A stretch of 64,000 nucleotides of DNA from positions 1 through 64,000 of the IMG/VR virus record IMGVR_UViG_3300048597_000624. The stretch is one strand, 5' to 3'. Below the pieces are notes generated by a model. That model was not told the DNA's origin. It did not search any database and saw only the letters and a list, made by a program, of their open reading frames with translations. Shown one piece after another: positions 4,433 to 61,421 of this stretch (its first letter is position 1; each line of letters starts with the position of its first letter). Origin of the DNA: a virus. The translations under genes and the position numbers were made by a program.

Positions 4433-6465
4433 ATTTCCTTAAGCACGCGGCCATCAATTTTTAGCAACTGATGAGGAAGCCCTGAGAGGTGCGATTGGAG
4501 TCTTTCGATATTCTCGCTTGTGAAGAATATGACTTGCTGGCCAAATTGACTGGCCATTGATGTCCGGCGAAGCAATTCATTAAAACTCAAATCTCTCGTA
4601 CTTTGTTGACGTGGTTCGTCAAAAATAATGCAACCGGGATGATTCGACGGCTGACTTCTTGATAATTCTAAAAGCCCGTGAAGGTAGGACCAGATGGTGC
4701 GGATTAGGTCGCTTGCGGAAATGCTCGTTTGCAGTGAAAAGCTCGTTTGCAAGTCGAAGCCTTCGTGTTCTGGTCGATACGTGTCTGTTGAAATGACAAC
4801 TTGGTTTACTGGAAAGCTGCCGAATCCATACTGAGTCAACTGCTCCCGAAGCGTAGCCGTCCAAGCCAGAAGCTTTTGCTTATCGTCTGCCGTAACGTCA
4901 TCATTTGGGAGGCGGCTTAGGCGTTCTTGCACGTCTTTCCACCGCTGCGATAGCTCATCGAATCCCTCCAAGATTGCCTGAAGCTGCTGCTCGACTTCCC
5001 GGTCCTTGCGGATGGCGTTGTCCGTCGTCATCCTTGTTTGAATTGCGGCAATCGAGGGAAGCCGTCCATCGGACACCAAAGTCTCCCGTAAAGCTCGCAC
5101 TCGATCTCGTCGGGAAGACAAGTCCTCGTGAACTGCTCGCACTTGTCGGCTCCTCGACTCGACTACTTGACGTGCGTTAAGTTGCACGCCCTCGTACGTT
5201 CGTAGTTGCTCGGTAAGAAACTGAATGTTCTCATCAAGTGTCATGACGGATTGCTCCGGTTCCAAAGGAACTAGAGAATCCTGAATGGTTTGATGACAGA
5301 CCGGGCATGTACCTTGGTCTATTGATGAGTCTTGCCGCGATCCAAGCTGCTTCAGCACCCGAACATCTTTGTGCTGCTGAATATCCTCCGCAATCGCAGC
5401 CAGCCGGTCGTCCACTCGCTTTACTTCTTGTTGCTCTGATTCCAGTGCGTCGAGCAAGCGAGAGTGCAACGTCTGCTTTTCGCGGATTCCGTGTTCTGCC
5501 TCGGTCAACTCCGACTGTGCCACAGTGGCGATTTCCTGAACGCGTGGAATTTCCTCCAGTATGAGTTGATTGAGTGACTCCACGTTGGCCGCAATGCGTT
5601 GCCCGATGTTGATCCACGAATCACCTTCCGGTACTGCAAGTGTGGGAGGGACTGCCGGGGGCCAGGTGGCAACGGGTTTTTGAGGCAATGCCTGAATCGT
5701 CCCGCCTGCACTTTCGCCGAGGTCCGCTGCTCGTGAAACCCTATTCGTCCACTCGGCCTCGATGCGACTCTGTTCAAATACCAACTCTTGTCGGGTCAGC
5801 GCGATTTGGTGAGCATCCATATTCAACAGGAACTCTACCGAGCGCTTGTGGGCATCGCGAATCCGAAAATGCGATGGGAGCGGCGGTTGAACCGTTGACC
5901 AGCCCCGAGTCTGCTCAACGATAAAATAAGGAACAATGCACTGCATGTAGAGCGGATACTCATTGCCGTCGTATGTCTGCACGGTTGGCAAACTCCACCC
6001 CAAGAATTTGGCAAGGTAGTGATGGAACCCCAACTCTCTAGTAGCTGCTCCCTGTCGGCTAACAAACATATCTCGTGTTCGGACTGAAGCAGTGGGATTT
6101 GTGAGTGCCGGACCCTCGTGAACTGTTATTAGGTTCTTGTCTCTCTCGCCCTTGATCGTGCGTTGGATTACGATCCGCTGATTCTGTGCGTTTTCAATCT
6201 CCAAGAGTACTTCGGATTCCAAAACGTCGTGCTCACCGGTTGCGGAGTTGAGACGTGCCTTGACGGCGGGCGGCAATGGCAAATCGGCCTGACTCGGCGA
6301 AAGCATCGCCTCCATTCCCAAGGCAACTAGAATGGACTTCACACACGTCGATTTGCCCATTGAGTTGTCGGCCCATACGACAACAAGTCCATCGGGGAAA
6401 TCCAGCGTCGCACCGAATGGTCCGGCGTCTGTCTGCACACGAATCATCAATCGTCTGAATCTCAT
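4429..6465 (-). CDS. SMC/Rad50-like ABC ATPase of a Lamassu / ABC-three-component defence system (LmuB-like)
   Basis: Walker A ADNSMGKST, long coiled coil with CPVC zinc hook, SISASD signature, Walker B IIFDEP. Confidence 0.85.
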   Translation of the reverse strand: MRFRRLMIRVQTDAGPFGATLDFPDGLVVVWADNSMGKSTCVKSILVALGMEAMLSPSQADLPLPPAVKARLNSATGEHDVLESEVLLEIENAQNQRIVIQRTIKGERDKNLITVHEGPALTNPTASVRTRDMFVSRQGAATRELGFHHYLAKFLGWSLPTVQTYDGNEYPLYMQCIVPYFIVEQTRGWSTVQPPLPSHFRIRDAHKRSVEFLLNMDAHQIALTRQELVFEQSRIEAEWTNRVSRAADLGESAGGTIQALPQKPVATWPPAVPPTLAVPEGDSWINIGQRIAANVESLNQLILEEIPRVQEIATVAQSELTEAEHGIREKQTLHSRLLDALESEQQEVKRVDDRLAAIAEDIQQHKDVRVLKQLGSRQDSSIDQGTCPVCHQTIQDSLVPLEPEQSVMTLDENIQFLTEQLRTYEGVQLNARQVVESRSRQVRAVHEDLSSRRDRVRALRETLVSDGRLPSIAAIQTRMTTDNAIRKDREVEQQLQAILEGFDELSQRWKDVQERLSRLPNDDVTADDKQKLLAWTATLREQLTQYGFGSFPVNQVVISTDTYRPEHEGFDLQTSFSLQTSISASDLIRTIWSYLHGLLELSRSQPSNHPGCIIFDEPRQQSTRDLSFNELLRRTSMASQFGQQVIFFTSENIERLQSHLSGLPHQLLKIDGRVLKEM

Positions 6466-27445: not shown

Positions 27446-27493
27446 AGAAGCACCCTTTGCAAGGAGTGAAAGAAAGAATCCCGGTCCCGGAAG

Positions 27494-27569
27494 TAGCAGG
27501 GGCTGGATTCGAACCAGCGATCTCAGGGTTATGGGCCCTACGAGGACGGCCAGACTCCTCTACCCTGCA
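27494..27569 (-). tRNA. tRNA-Met(CAT), initiator-type, phage-encoded, C at position 33
   Basis: T1:T72 mismatch, A11:T24, GGG/CCC in anticodon stem, loop CCCATAA, GCTGG-TTCGAAT-CCAGC, A73. Confidence 0.88.
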
Positions 27570-34445: not shown

Positions 34446-36059
34446 TTACGAAATCAAACTGTCCGGAATCGTGATCCCGACGCCACTCGTAGTGGGCAGC
34501 AGCAGTCCCTTGGCTTTCAAATCGAAGTTTCTGTCCATCCATTCGTGGAACTCGCCCGCGCGGTCGTTCGTGACGGCCAGGCCATACCGGTCGCCAATCG
34601 CCCAAGCGATGTTGCCTTCGAACGCCGCGACACTCGGGCCGCCGCTGTAAATCTGCGTCATGGCCACCAGCGAGAAATCGTCCGCGAATACGCTGCTGGT
34701 ATTGCTCACCGCGGTTGAGATTCGGTAGCGCAGATAAACCTGCGGAGGCAGCACGCGCGGGGTGCGGAACGCCACGTTCTTTGCGGCATAGCTGGTCGTC
34801 AGCCCGGTCGCGGAAATCGTCAGCGTGTTGGCCGTCCCCTCGTCGTCGTTGATGACGGCGCCGCCATCCCAGAGCGAGACTTGCAGCACGCCAGCCGCCG
34901 GGACCGAATCGACCTTGAATTGTCCGTTGAACGCATACTGCGTTTGCGGTGAGAGCGACAACGGTACAAGGATCTCGGTCAGTTCCGATCCGTTGGAATC
35001 GAACTCCAACGCCTTTCCGTCGCCATAAACGTGCGTCGAACCGGCAGTCGTGGTGTTGTGAGCTATCGACGGGCTGCCGCCGGTCAAGTAGCTCGTGCTG
35101 GTCAACTGAGTGACGTTGCCGCCCACGCCGTTGAACGTGATCGTGTGCGTGTAGTTCGGCGATGTGCCGGTTGCCGCCACGGTTACGAGCTCGAGTCCCT
35201 TCAGAGCCCGCAACCGCGACTGGACGGTCGAAGCAGGAGCGTTGTACGCGATGAGAGCGGTCGTCTGGACCTGGCTCGCGGCGTTGGTGTAGCTCAGCGT
35301 GTAATAGCCGTCGGTTGGGGTGCCGCTGATCGCGACCGTTTGCACTTCCACGTCCGTAAGCTTGATCGTGGTGCCGATCGTCCCGAGTACCTTGATCCAG
35401 TCGTCGGGGAAGTTGGCTTGGTCGTCTTCGTCCTCGAACCCGCCGTTCGTGATGAGTCCCCCGCCGGTTGTGACTGTGACCGTTGCTGACTTGCCCGATC
35501 CCGCCGGCCAGGATTCGGACAGCAAGTTGCGAGCCGCCACGGGGGCCTTGAGCCGGAACGACGTCGCGGCGGTCGCTTCGATTTGGATCGTCTCCGCCAG
35601 CATCAGTTCGTTGACCAGTCCATCCGCGCGCTTGGTGCTGACGACGAACGTGCCGTTGCCTGCGGGGGAGCCCACGGCCGAGACGGAGGCACCGACGGCG
35701 TTCTCTTCGACGGCCTCGGTATCGGCGATCATCTGCCGAATAATCTCGCGCAGAACGGACGCGATGTCGTAAGCCGGCAACGCGACGTCATCCTTGACCA
35801 TCTGGATGCAGGTGTTTTCGATCGCGGTTTTCAGCGCGGACTGGAGCGTGTCGGTGTTCGTTTTGAAGTTGTTCAGCGCTGGGGGCAGGCCCGCGACGGC
35901 CGCTTCAAGCTCGGGGCTGACCGCGGCGAACTCGTCGAGGGCGTCCTCAACCTCGGCCGGAACGGTCGTCCCCCGGGCGGTGTTCAGGACTTCCTGGGCG
36001 TAGAAAAGTTTGCCCAATCGGACGGGAAGGCTGCCGCTGCCGGACCAAGAGAGAGCCAT
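34446..36059 (-). CDS. Putative virion structural protein with carbohydrate-binding-like domain (start re-called at MALSWS)
   Basis: LITNGGFE...W motif, Thr/Gly-rich beta composition. Confidence 0.6.
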   Translation of the reverse strand: MALSWSGSGSLPVRLGKLFYAQEVLNTARGTTVPAEVEDALDEFAAVSPELEAAVAGLPPALNNFKTNTDTLQSALKTAIENTCIQMVKDDVALPAYDIASVLREIIRQMIADTEAVEENAVGASVSAVGSPAGNGTFVVSTKRADGLVNELMLAETIQIEATAATSFRLKAPVAARNLLSESWPAGSGKSATVTVTTGGGLITNGGFEDEDDQANFPDDWIKVLGTIGTTIKLTDVEVQTVAISGTPTDGYYTLSYTNAASQVQTTALIAYNAPASTVQSRLRALKGLELVTVAATGTSPNYTHTITFNGVGGNVTQLTSTSYLTGGSPSIAHNTTTAGSTHVYGDGKALEFDSNGSELTEILVPLSLSPQTQYAFNGQFKVDSVPAAGVLQVSLWDGGAVINDDEGTANTLTISATGLTTSYAAKNVAFRTPRVLPPQVYLRYRISTAVSNTSSVFADDFSLVAMTQIYSGGPSVAAFEGNIAWAIGDRYGLAVTNDRAGEFHEWMDRNFDLKAKGLLLPTTSGVGITIPDSLIS

Positions 36060-36083: not shown

Positions 36084-36150
36084 CCAACGAAAAAAGCCCG
36101 CCAGCAAGCCGATATTGGCTCGAAGGCGGGCCCGGTTGTTCCGACACCCA
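36084..36150 (-). promoter_or_regulatory. Attenuator element copy A (conserved hairpin overlapping terminator)
   Basis: TGGGTGTCGGAACAACCGGGCCCGC...GCGGGCTTTTTTCGTT. Confidence 0.85.
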
Positions 36151-36168
36151 TGTTGAGTTGTGCGGGGT

Positions 36169-36198
36169 ATTCTAGCGATCCCTGGCGGCCAGTGCCAA
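36169..36198 (-). promoter_or_regulatory. Sigma70-like promoter feeding attenuator A
   Basis: TTGGCA-N18-TAGAAT. Confidence 0.55.
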
Positions 36199-43756: not shown

Positions 43757-43815
43757 AACGAAAAAAGCCCGCGACTCGTTTACTGAGGTCGCGGGCCCGG
43801 TTGTTCCGACACCCA
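43757..43815 (-). promoter_or_regulatory. Attenuator element copy B
   Basis: TGGGTGTCGGAACAACCGGGCCCGCGAC...GTCGCGGGCTTTTTTCGTT. Confidence 0.85.
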
Positions 43816-43858: not shown

Positions 43859-45232
43859 TCAGGCTTTCGCGAGGGCGGCCTCGTAGGAAATGCCTTCGGA
43901 TTGAGCGATGTTGACCGCCCGCTTCGCGCGAGCCTCGGCGTCGGCATCGCTTTGCCCCGTCTTGATCGGGGGTCCGGAGTAAACCCGACGTTCGACCGGG
44001 ATGCGTTGATACCGCTCCTTGATTCGCGCTTCGTGCTTCTCGAATTGATCGTCGCTCAGTTCGATCGTCTCTTCGAGCTCGGCGGAGACGTCGAGCATGT
44101 GAGTCTTGGCCAGTTCGTCCAATCGCGAGTAGCGAACGCTGCGACGGTTCTCGCGTTCGAGCGCCGCGACACGCTGTTCGAGCACCTTGTTTTCACCGTC
44201 TTTCATGGCGTACTTCCTTTTCAAATCGACGTTTTCGCGGCGGTATTTCTCGGCCACGGTCGCGCTCGCCTTGCCATCGACGTCATCTTCGACGGAGCCG
44301 GCGGCTCGCTCGTAGAACTCTTTGGACTTGGGGTCATCCCCTTCGCACATCGCTCGCTTGAGCTTGGTGCGGTCTTCGTCGCCCAGGATGCCCAGGAAGT
44401 CCTTGGCGCCCTTGTCGTCGCCGTCTTCCTGATATTTGCGGAAGGCTTCGACGTTGGTGTCGTCGTCGGCAAGTGGAGCGGCACCCAGCCCAGCCGCATC
44501 CGCTTGGGGAACGGTCGGCGCGGGGCCAGTCTCTTCGGCCATCTTCGAAGCCGCCCACTGAAAGACGTCGGTTTGTTGAATTGCGTTCACAACCTGCTGG
44601 ATGTCTTCCGGCGTGAGAGCCATTTTGCGCTTCTCCTGAGTGGTGCCATCGGTCGGTACGAAGACGTTCGCACCACCAGGCGCGACGGCGGCATATTTGC
44701 GGACTTGGCGTCCCTTTTCGAGACGTCGGTAGTGCAGGCCGGGCGGCAACCCCAGGTCGAGGCGGGGCGTCTCGCCGGCCAGTAGTGAAATCGGGTCGAT
44801 GAATCGGTCGTGCAAGTTCTCTTCCGCCCAGACTTCGACGCTTCGGCGGGGATACTTGCGGATGACGTCGGCGCGATCCTTGAAGATTCGGAAGCGGGCG
44901 AAGATTGCCGCGCGAGGTCGTTTCCGGCCAAGGCGCCCCAGTTTGAACGGGCCAGCAAACCCAACCACTTCAGGATCTCGATCCTCTTCACCGGGATTGG
45001 GAGTGTGCCGCAGAATGATTGGCACATAATCGCCGGTGTCTTCGATCCGCAGGTTGTTGTTGTGGCACATCGATTCGAGCACCGGCAGGTCGTACACCTC
45101 GTCTTCGCCCTCGAAAGCCGTGACGTGCTCGGCGAAAACCGCGACGTCGTCCAGCACGATGAATTGCGATTCGTCCAGCGGTGCGCTGGAGAAGTCAATT
45201 TCGGCCGGGGCTTCGAGAGTGGCTGTTGCCAT
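43859..45232 (-). CDS. Prohead protease / scaffold fusion (start re-called at MATATLE)
   Basis: PIILRH, VVGF, YPRRSVE, ISLLAGETP assemblin-like motifs; acidic coiled-coil C-terminus. Confidence 0.75.
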   Translation of the reverse strand: MATATLEAPAEIDFSSAPLDESQFIVLDDVAVFAEHVTAFEGEDEVYDLPVLESMCHNNNLRIEDTGDYVPIILRHTPNPGEEDRDPEVVGFAGPFKLGRLGRKRPRAAIFARFRIFKDRADVIRKYPRRSVEVWAEENLHDRFIDPISLLAGETPRLDLGLPPGLHYRRLEKGRQVRKYAAVAPGGANVFVPTDGTTQEKRKMALTPEDIQQVVNAIQQTDVFQWAASKMAEETGPAPTVPQADAAGLGAAPLADDDTNVEAFRKYQEDGDDKGAKDFLGILGDEDRTKLKRAMCEGDDPKSKEFYERAAGSVEDDVDGKASATVAEKYRRENVDLKRKYAMKDGENKVLEQRVAALERENRRSVRYSRLDELAKTHMLDVSAELEETIELSDDQFEKHEARIKERYQRIPVERRVYSGPPIKTGQSDADAEARAKRAVNIAQSEGISYEAALAKA

Positions 45233-45241
45233 GCGAGGTAA

Positions 45242-45302
45242 CCAACAAAAAAAGGCCCGCGATTCCATTTTGGAGTCGCGGGCCCGGTTGTTCCGACACC
45301 CA
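45242..45302 (-). promoter_or_regulatory. Attenuator element copy C
   Basis: TGGGTGTCGGAACAACCGGGCCCGCGA...TCGCGGGCCTTTTTTTGTT. Confidence 0.85.
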
Positions 45303-45314
45303 ATCGCTTTGTTC

Positions 45315-45542
45315 TTACTTCAACGATTCTGAGTTGGTTGCGTGGACGACTTCGATCAGCCCGTTGTCCACGCACAGCTCGACGTTGACGCGGCCATAAT
45401 AGCCACGTCTTAAAACGTCCGTCAATAGATTCTTCAACCGCGAGTTGGCTAACGCCAGCATCCTCTGGTTCTTCTCGAAGTCCACCGTAGGGACTTCAGG
45501 CGACGTCGTTGTACCACTCAAATCAGAATTCTCCTCGGTCAA
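45315..45542 (-). CDS. Small DUF2292/YezD-like protein, candidate antiterminator
   Basis: LRRGYYGRVNVELCVDNGLIEVV...ESLK; stop is 13 nt upstream of attenuator C. Confidence 0.55.
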   Translation of the reverse strand: MTEENSDLSGTTTSPEVPTVDFEKNQRMLALANSRLKNLLTDVLRRGYYGRVNVELCVDNGLIEVVHATNSESLK

Positions 45543-45568
45543 AAGCCGTCCCGGCCGGCCGAGTTTAC

Positions 45569-45748
45569 TTAGGATGTTTTGCGGTTCTTCCGCTTCACTG
45601 TGCTCGCGTTGACCTTGGCTGCCTGCGCCTTGGAAGCCTTGGACTTGCGGCGGTACGTCTCTTTCTCGCTGGGCTTGGTCATTACCGCATCGCCCATGAA
45701 GCCTGGTCCACGGATCGGCGTATCGAAGATCTCAGGTAGATCGGCCAT
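45569..45748 (-). CDS. 59-aa basic protein missing from ORF track
   Basis: MADLPEIFDTPIRGPGFMGDAVMTKPSEKETYRRKSKASKAQAAKVNASTVKRKNRKTS; TGATG coupling to portal stop. Confidence 0.6.
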   Translation of the reverse strand: MADLPEIFDTPIRGPGFMGDAVMTKPSEKETYRRKSKASKAQAAKVNASTVKRKNRKTS

Positions 45749-61297: not shown

Positions 61298-61367
61298 CCA
61301 ACGAAAAAAGCCCGCAGGATGCTTCGCCGTGAGGCGGCACGCTGCGGGCTCGAGGTTTTCGATACCC
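61298..61367 (-). promoter_or_regulatory. Attenuator element copy D (covarying variant)
   Basis: GGGTATCGAAAACCTCGAGCCCGCAG...CTGCGGGCTTTTTTCGTTGG. Confidence 0.8.
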
Positions 61368-61391
61368 GTTCGGTTGTTTGTTCGGGAGGTC

Positions 61392-61421
61392 AGGATAGGC
61401 GCGAGGCGGCGGCGAAGTCAA
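61392..61421 (-). promoter_or_regulatory. Candidate late promoter feeding attenuator D
   Basis: TTGACT-N18-TATCCT. Confidence 0.6.

Follow-up and report, generated by a model that had tools for sequence, protein, structure and literature searches.

The 64-kb window analysed here, the first part of the 85,224-base IMG/VR provirus record IMGVR_UViG_3300048597_000624, carries within a Mu-like head module on its minus strand a very short open reading frame (ORF) followed directly by a conserved leader hairpin, P1, which overlaps an intrinsic terminator. We found that the small ORF and its downstream hairpin-terminator are a recurring cassette. The ORF is a real, coding-like gene of a rare family of Planctomycetota phages and prophages with a remote link to DUF2292 (YezD), and the hairpin shows compensatory changes in its stem. 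RNA binding and antitermination by the small protein are what we infer from these sequence features: an antiterminator acting on the switch between P1 and terminator, as a preliminary description of this DNA had supposed, is plausible, and we advance it tentatively. The parts of the cassette are the following.

45315..45542, minus strand: ORF as flagged, 75 codons from TTG 45542 to TAA 45315, with a codon score like that of in-frame genes
45315..45521, minus strand: likely true coding sequence, 68 amino acids (aa) from TTG 45521, with GAGGAG at 45531-45536, 9 nucleotides (nt) upstream
45396..45425, minus strand: sigma70-like site inside the small ORF, TTGACG-18-TATTAT, ~95 nt upstream of copy C, a consensus match only
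45280..45301, minus strand: P1 copy C, with G as the bulged purine, eight pairs and two G.U pairs
45247..45285, minus strand: terminator C, hairpin 45254-45284 plus T7 at 45247-45253, its 5' arm overlapping the 3' arm of P1

The ORF was present where it had been described, ending in the residues ...RRGYYGRVNVELCVDNGLIEVVHATNSESLK, and its TAA stop (45317-45315) indeed lies 13 nt before the first G (G1, 45301) of leader copy C, which runs into the hairpin and the T7 tract. The proposed length of 75 aa holds for the open frame. The start is more likely TTG 45521, and the protein thus 68 aa long, because GAGGAG is found there at 9-nt spacing and because P0002, the sole close relative among 1.8 billion representatives (68 aa, 42% identity, E 3.1e-7), begins to align at residue 9 of the query. 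The codon-usage score of the small ORF was 0.102 per codon. Windows of 75 codons taken in frame from 23 long genes averaged 0.108, and out of frame no more than 1.8% of windows scored as high or higher. That the ORF is not expressed as protein is scarcely credible. It is short, starts with TTG and has no match in Pfam or, in a search of its own, in PHROGs, and a word-based protein search returned the query alone. The codon score, however, equals that of in-frame genes, and when 18 members are aligned, with identities to the window protein as low as 17%, no internal stop appears and the hydrophobic and glycine pattern is kept throughout. Furthermore, the protein could be modelled by AlphaFold2 with a mean pLDDT of 72, as a predicted helix (residues 12-39) followed by a beta-hairpin with strands 42-52 and 55-66; a helix had been expected from the letters alone.

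The evidence that carries the cassette comes from its recurrence. Scanning the leader motif across public collections yielded 22 further distinct elements ending in a hairpin, and the genuine-looking genome records that carried it were of Planctomycetaceae or Planctomycetota. With a hidden Markov model (HMM) of the first ten small ORFs (alignment A3), built before the remaining loci had been seen, a family ORF was detected ending 4-350 nt upstream of 16 of these 22 elements (E ≤ 4.1e-5). The other six comprised two with a weak or by-eye match (L032, L044), two with none (L022, L028) and two too short to judge (L037, L040), so that adjacency was clear for 16 of the 20 elements with enough upstream sequence, or for 18 when L032 and L044 are included. 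In the opposite direction, with the protein searched for in viral contigs, eight loci were obtained, and all seven that had downstream sequence carried the element. Two loci with a compensated P1 variant, L019 and L020, were found via the protein, both having been missed by an exact 18-mer scan of the DNA. For close relatives, the co-occurrence of homologs with an immediately downstream leader-terminator was therefore largely borne out.

At the element loci the family proteins fall into at least 12 lineages, with 17-43% identity to the window protein. They are rare, with 12 clusters among 5.8 billion proteins, none of which has a Pfam domain or a name. BLASTP did not align P0001 with P0003 at E ≤ 100, and the family link is accordingly drawn from HMM and profile evidence. 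Around the cassette the neighbours change: the portal beside it is Mu-type in the window and lambda-type in L004, and the genes upstream vary among loci. Downstream, a single gene family was found at 11 loci; the window, L010 and L032 fall outside it at a BLASTP threshold of 1e-3, as do several other singletons that are probably wrong-frame picks, the picking of downstream ORFs being crude. In two phage groups (L019/L020/L034 and L010/L012) a transfer RNA (tRNA) gene, tRNA-Met (CAT), stands between small ORF and hairpin, directly upstream of the element; the tRNA-Met of the window lies elsewhere, at 27493-27569. Translational coupling through the stop codon of the ORF was rejected in view of the variable distance from stop to motif and of the tRNA that sometimes intervenes.

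P1 itself is a 22-nt leader, GGGU-R-UCGG-AACAA-CCGG-GCCC, which folds into an 8-bp hairpin with a bulged purine and two G.U pairs. The leader is identical at three minus-strand sites, with G1 at 45301 (copy C), 43814 (copy B) and 36149 (copy A); a fourth, variant copy, D, begins at 61367.

43761..43814, minus strand: copy B, P1 at 43793-43814, terminator and T6, before the 139-aa cement/scaffold-like and major capsid genes
36090..36198, minus strand: copy A, P1 at 36128-36149, terminator and T6, before the major-tail-like gene starting at 36059
36169-36198, minus strand: promoter of copy A, sigma70-like TTGGCA-18-TAGAAT
61304..61421, minus strand: copy D, P1 variant at 61346-61367 (GGGUAUCGAAAACCUCGAGCCC, pairing kept through changed partners), terminator and T6
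61392-61421, minus strand: promoter of copy D, promoter-like TTGACT-18-TATCCT

All four terminators have the layout of intrinsic terminators, a G+C-rich hairpin, differing in its interior from copy to copy, directly followed by T6-T7 (-24 to -37.5 kcal/mol, z -2.2 to -5.5); for the element folds overall, z-scores ranged from -2.2 to -5.7. A run of at least four T was read by eye at the end of 22 of the 26 elements, and from the T-run to the next start codon there are about 10-35 nt (measured gaps, 0 to 34 nt). In all copies 4-6 nt of the P1 3' arm (CCGGGCCC) are also part of the terminator foot. Since this arm supplies the bottom four to six terminator pairs, P1 and terminator are mutually exclusive.

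Alignment A7 holds 26 elements in 25 distinct rows, 22 distinct elements lying outside the window. All 200 of its P1 pairing cells are paired; G-C to A-U compensatory changes occur in two P1 pairs, one in L019 and one in copy D, and a further change leads from U.G to U-A. None of 500 shuffles reached the observed values. The covariation support for P1 is thus real; it is modest because five of the eight pairs are invariant. That two G.U pairs are conserved speaks for an RNA structure and not for a palindrome in the DNA. If the bulged R is left aside, 22 of the 26 copies have the same 22-mer, and the remaining four differ at 1-5 further positions. Within 110 nt upstream, a sigma70-like promoter was found for 7 of 25 elements, compared with 3.2% of random windows; the -10 hexamer lies 19 nt upstream of copy A and 24 nt upstream of copy D. 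These promoters indicate that the elements are leaders gating otherwise open promoters. In L004, L005 and L006 a near-consensus sigma70 promoter, TTGACA-17-TAGATT, overlaps the TGA of the small ORF and ends 14 nt before the hairpin. A sigma54 or extracytoplasmic-function-type promoter inside the motif was rejected, as no conserved -12 or -10 partner was seen by eye. Rfam detected two tRNAs only in the window at gathering level, with sub-threshold chance matches near copies B and C. Neither the P1 motif nor the protein family is described, the one having no entry in Rfam and the other none in Pfam.

Taken together, these observations suggest how the cassette might work. Left alone, the far more stable terminator would win over P1, which it excludes, and transcription would stop. 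The small protein would hold P1 closed as it emerges from the polymerase, thereby removing the bottom four to six terminator pairs next to the U-tract, and RNA polymerase could then read through into the scaffold/protease, decoration, capsid and tail genes. Because its gene is the last of the terminase-portal operon, the protein may serve as a timer, with the portal made first and the shell proteins after it. Copy D heads the operon that runs through terminase, portal and small ORF; if the protein acted on this copy as well, it would exert positive feedback on itself, feedback that the preliminary description had derived from the place of the gene inside the late region. We favour a protein-RNA pair because the adjacency extends across at least 12 lineages with changing neighbours, because an attenuator needs a switch and because a parallel layout is found for DUF2292 genes (see below). 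Adjacency, the competition of P1 with the terminator foot and the two compensatory changes speak for the antiterminator proposed earlier; distant homologs that lack the motif, elements that lack the ORF, a core of neutral to acidic charge and a protein more variable than its target speak against it.

The latter points have to be weighed in detail. Window copies A, B and D have no adjacent family ORF. L028, on a Planctomycetaceae contig (~3972-4036, minus strand), has its element between Phd/YefM-like antitoxin and RelE/ParE-like toxin genes, with TTGACA-17-GATCAT 20 nt upstream of the element and no small family ORF nearby. On another Planctomycetaceae contig, L022 (element at ~4600-4674) sits in a satellite-like island with a tyrosine integrase, an excisionase-like helix-turn-helix gene and a primase-like gene, and its 7.9-Mb assembly has no family member at E ≤ 0.01. 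Conversely, a search of 401 Planctomycetota genomes with the family profile gave five members, and in no case does the canonical hairpin follow. Two of them, L051 and L108, retain a leader, of a different kind, and a strong terminator, followed by what by eye is a scaffold-like (L051) or prohead-protease-like (L108) gene; L106 and L107 have no terminator, and L105 is ambiguous. The absence of the downstream motif, named beforehand as a finding that would count against the proposal, thus applies to the distant homologs. The protein itself raises further difficulties. A single glycine is the only invariant residue across 18 family sequences, and the RNA is nearly invariant (22 of 26 share the 22-mer) while the protein falls to 17-43% identity. 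Of a partner that recognises a specific sequence one would expect more of the polar contacts to be retained; the pattern is more in keeping with a conserved partner from the host. The charge of the structured core runs from neutral to acidic, with a net value of -4 to +2 in 17 of 18 members and an isoelectric point down to 4.8. No known RNA-binding protein was matched, by fold or by family, with Foldseek, with VIA-align or with a profile run against PDB sequences: the best Foldseek hit in the PDB was GnsA (E 0.68) and the best among viral models had E 0.13; VIA-align against 48,161 chains returned none at Z ≥ 5 (top Z 4.7, a phage Mu baseplate chain); and the profile search matched a designed helix only (E 2.2). 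None of these matches is informative on function.

Many of these points would be accounted for if the small protein served in the head module, for example in assembly or as an accessory to portal or scaffold, and neighboured the element by position only; the attenuators would then be switched by an early phage protein or by a conserved part of the host machinery, RNA polymerase or a Nus-type factor for instance. We regard this as a serious contender, although somewhat doubtful. Besides the invariant RNA, the diverging, non-basic protein and the elements without a nearby ORF, it would explain why the G002 assembly has the element and no family member, and why distant homologs stay before a prohead-protease-like gene without the canonical hairpin. 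The position between portal/MuF and scaffold is, moreover, the place at which a new late transcription unit begins in Mu-like head modules (the PI promoter of Mu), and with a transcription-unit boundary there, shared gene order by itself could produce the adjacency. Conserved gene order could indeed explain much of it, in particular since one downstream gene family at 11 loci implies that the neighbours were largely inherited together. Such a positional account is less at ease with a cassette that persists beside different portal families and different upstream genes. It is also challenged by L051, a second prophage (G001:C1, ~135.7 kb) with a 60-aa family member, where the ORF stays beside a leader-terminator-scaffold unit although no same-strand gene of at least 50 aa ends nearby on the upstream side, where a leucine-rich-repeat-like ORF was seen by eye on the opposite strand. 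The independent gene-then-hairpin layout in the related DUF2292 genes weighs in the same direction, and no other candidate regulator was seen among the 18 window proteins scanned. The earlier statement that the window has no Q-like activator agrees with the lack of an antiterminator-family match among these 18 proteins in Pfam, a sample that leaves most window ORFs unscanned. In L051 the final 18 nt of the gene are repeated ~120 nt downstream, just before the different leader hairpin, the terminator and the scaffold-like gene; this looks like an insertion between gene and leader.

A regulator of the element that works by another mechanism is rather improbable. The protein might bind the upper UCGG-AACAA-CCGG hairpin and so affect processing, stability or translation, might promote termination, or might act on RNA polymerase with the RNA as a loading site. 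In the minimum-energy folds of copies A and L028 the upper 4-bp hairpin coexists with the terminator, and it resembles the CC[GA]G-N4-5-C[CT]GG hairpin after DUF2292 genes, where no terminator was seen by eye; the tRNA-Met directly upstream in two phage groups, furthermore, places RNA processing right beside the element. The T run of at least four after the stem in 22 of 26 elements points instead to termination as the regulated step, and the ~10-35 nt from T-run to start codon leave no room for a separate promoter.

Still less probable, in our view, is that no trans-acting factor exists, the terminators being constitutive and partly leaky or serving as insulators, with P1 tuning folding kinetics only and the ORF unrelated. 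Fixed attenuation would make sense between the antitoxin and toxin genes of L028. No host-wide regulon is evident either, the element being present in the seed genome only among 151 Planctomycetota genomes. Loop, bulge and 5' GGGU are, however, invariant while the terminator interiors have fully diverged, which argues for recognition by a partner, and fixed terminators before the most abundant virion proteins would oppose high expression. In the covariance-model search for P1 across the 151 genomes, the true element was recovered only in the seed genome, G001, the other top matches having no terminator; this assigns the element to mobile elements, and the idea of a general regulatory motif of the host was rejected.

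The resemblance to DUF2292/YezD that had been noted by eye stood at the level of profiles and failed at that of the Pfam model. PF10055 did not match the small ORF at E ≤ 1 or anything in the whole 85-kb record at E ≤ 10, and matched none of 10 and then none of 18 family members at E ≤ 10, the Pfam gathering threshold (22 bits) not being reached. We therefore compared alignments. Nine of 201 Planctomycetota genomes contained a genuine DUF2292 ORF, and hhalign matched these nine (alignment A6) to the phage family (alignment A5) with a probability of 72.9%, E 3.1e-5 and a score of 28.3 over 35 columns. None of 200 column shuffles reached this score (mean 8.3, standard deviation 2.0, maximum 15.4), and a reversed control gave 10.8. 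The DUF2292 model (AlphaFold2, pLDDT 77) has a helix at 9-23 and strands at 28-35 and 38-46, so that both predicted models show the order that marks the roughly 40-residue DUF2292 fold, one helix and then a two-stranded beta-hairpin; they were compared by the order of their elements, not superposed. Common to both is also the pattern [FY]G-x-[VI]-x-[IL]...G-x-[IV]. Given the significant profile-profile match and the same predicted element order, the phage family is a remote relative of DUF2292, not a member. In most phage members the first strand is two residues longer, and the genomic context differs: the phage family is found in the head module, DUF2292 genes upstream of secreted, porin-like or sulfate-binding-like genes. 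The nearest named atlas cluster, viral and with DUF2292 in 38% of its members (score 0.76), is a lead only.

Genuine DUF2292 genes of Planctomycetota are themselves followed by a hairpin. Across the loci L057-L067 and L098-L104, the form CC[GA]G-N4-5-C[CT]GG-AG was found within 150 nt after the stop at 7 of 9 discovery loci and at 3 of 9 held-out loci, with two more near-misses by eye; the background rate is 0.003-0.0055 per 150 nt. It comes in a CCGG/CCGG and a CCAG/CUGG version and is similar in shape to the upper P1 stem, UCGG-AACAA-CCGG. The gene that follows starts with a signal-peptide-like N-terminus and is porin-like or sulfate-binding-like by eye. Around the DUF2292 genes Rfam had no match, and inspection by eye of nine downstream regions showed no terminator made of a hairpin and a T-run. 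As the pattern was defined after the sequences had been seen, this hairpin is a lead only. It nevertheless raises the odds that the superfamily works together with a hairpin just after its gene. It is conceivable, if on the unlikely side, that the DUF2292 superfamily with its phage branch represents a class of regulators not recognised so far, very small proteins that bind RNA hairpins and whose genes each stand directly before the hairpin they act on. In phages of Planctomycetota this hairpin, fused to intrinsic terminators, would gate late genes as a portal-first, shell-later checkpoint; in hosts, genes for secreted, porin-like or sulfate-binding-like proteins would be under the control of the related CC[GA]G-N4-5-C[CT]GG hairpin.

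In the provirus, the small ORF is the last gene of the terminase-portal operon. The head module runs from a 1484-aa portal fusion through a 59-aa basic ORF and the small ORF to a 457-aa gene, which is followed by the 139-aa cement/scaffold-like gene, the major capsid protein and a Gp36-like adaptor. The two genes that flank the cassette are these.

43859..45232, minus strand: gene gated by copy C, 457 aa from ATG 45232, in protease/scaffold position, with no Pfam or PHROG match
45569..45748, minus strand: 59-aa ORF directly upstream of the small ORF, coding-like, with a very basic C-terminal tail

Other genes occupy the position of the 59-aa ORF in other loci. The portal fusion (45748-50202, minus strand, 1484 aa) combines in one frame Portal_Mu, NUDIX, a weak MutS_I-like stretch and a C-terminal HExxH. 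In a related phage (run X4, 68-kb contig; window 45302-46595), similarity ends exactly at the 5' edge of leader copy C, and 697 other letters stand in place of the 1292 nt upstream of this copy, which comprise the last part of the portal fusion together with the 59-aa and the small ORF. Three runs labelled RNA-Seq and marked as probably DNA contained contigs of relatives ~95-97% identical and were uninformative on transcripts.

If the small protein is indeed an antiterminator, it would represent a new antiterminator family with a new RNA motif absent from Rfam. It would also offer a first handle on late-gene control in Planctomycetota phages, for which a full-text literature search on Planctomycetes prophage antitermination found no report, and a first functional lead for DUF2292/YezD, a Pfam family to which no function has been assigned. 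With a protein of 68 aa and an RNA of 22 nt, the cassette is small enough for the hypothesis to be tested directly. If the link is positional only, the invariant element of hairpin and terminator would still call for a partner, which the host would probably provide.

Among known systems, the closest in geometry is antitermination by BglG, SacY and LicT, where binding of the protein to the ribonucleic antiterminator (RAT) hairpin prevents formation of the terminator. A conserved, bulged leader hairpin overlapping the 5' arm of a terminator, with the two structures mutually exclusive, was found here as well. The proteins differ: none of the 18 family members has a CAT or PRD domain in Pfam, and the protein considered here is a 68-aa helix and hairpin in a phage late operon, with a predicted RNA-binding role only. 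The arrangement also recalls late control in lambda by the constitutive promoter PR', the terminator tR' and the antiterminator Q, with a sigma70-like promoter and, within ~15-45 nt, a conserved leader and terminator ahead of the late structural genes, and P1 recalls boxB of the nut site bound by lambda N, a small stem with an A-rich pentaloop. Q and N, however, make polymerase processive from one loading site, whereas four local copies overlapping terminators are present here, and the candidate factor lies inside the late region; no match to the Q or N families was obtained for the small ORF (Pfam, PHROGs), for the 18 family members (Pfam) or for the 18 window proteins scanned. The put RNA of HK022 is likewise a conserved phage leader before terminators, but it has two stems in ~70 nt, needs no phage protein and acts processively; the present element is a 22-nt hairpin fused to each terminator. 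The kind of mechanism, an antiterminator hairpin stabilised by a protein, is known; this protein family and this RNA motif, absent from Pfam and Rfam, are not described.

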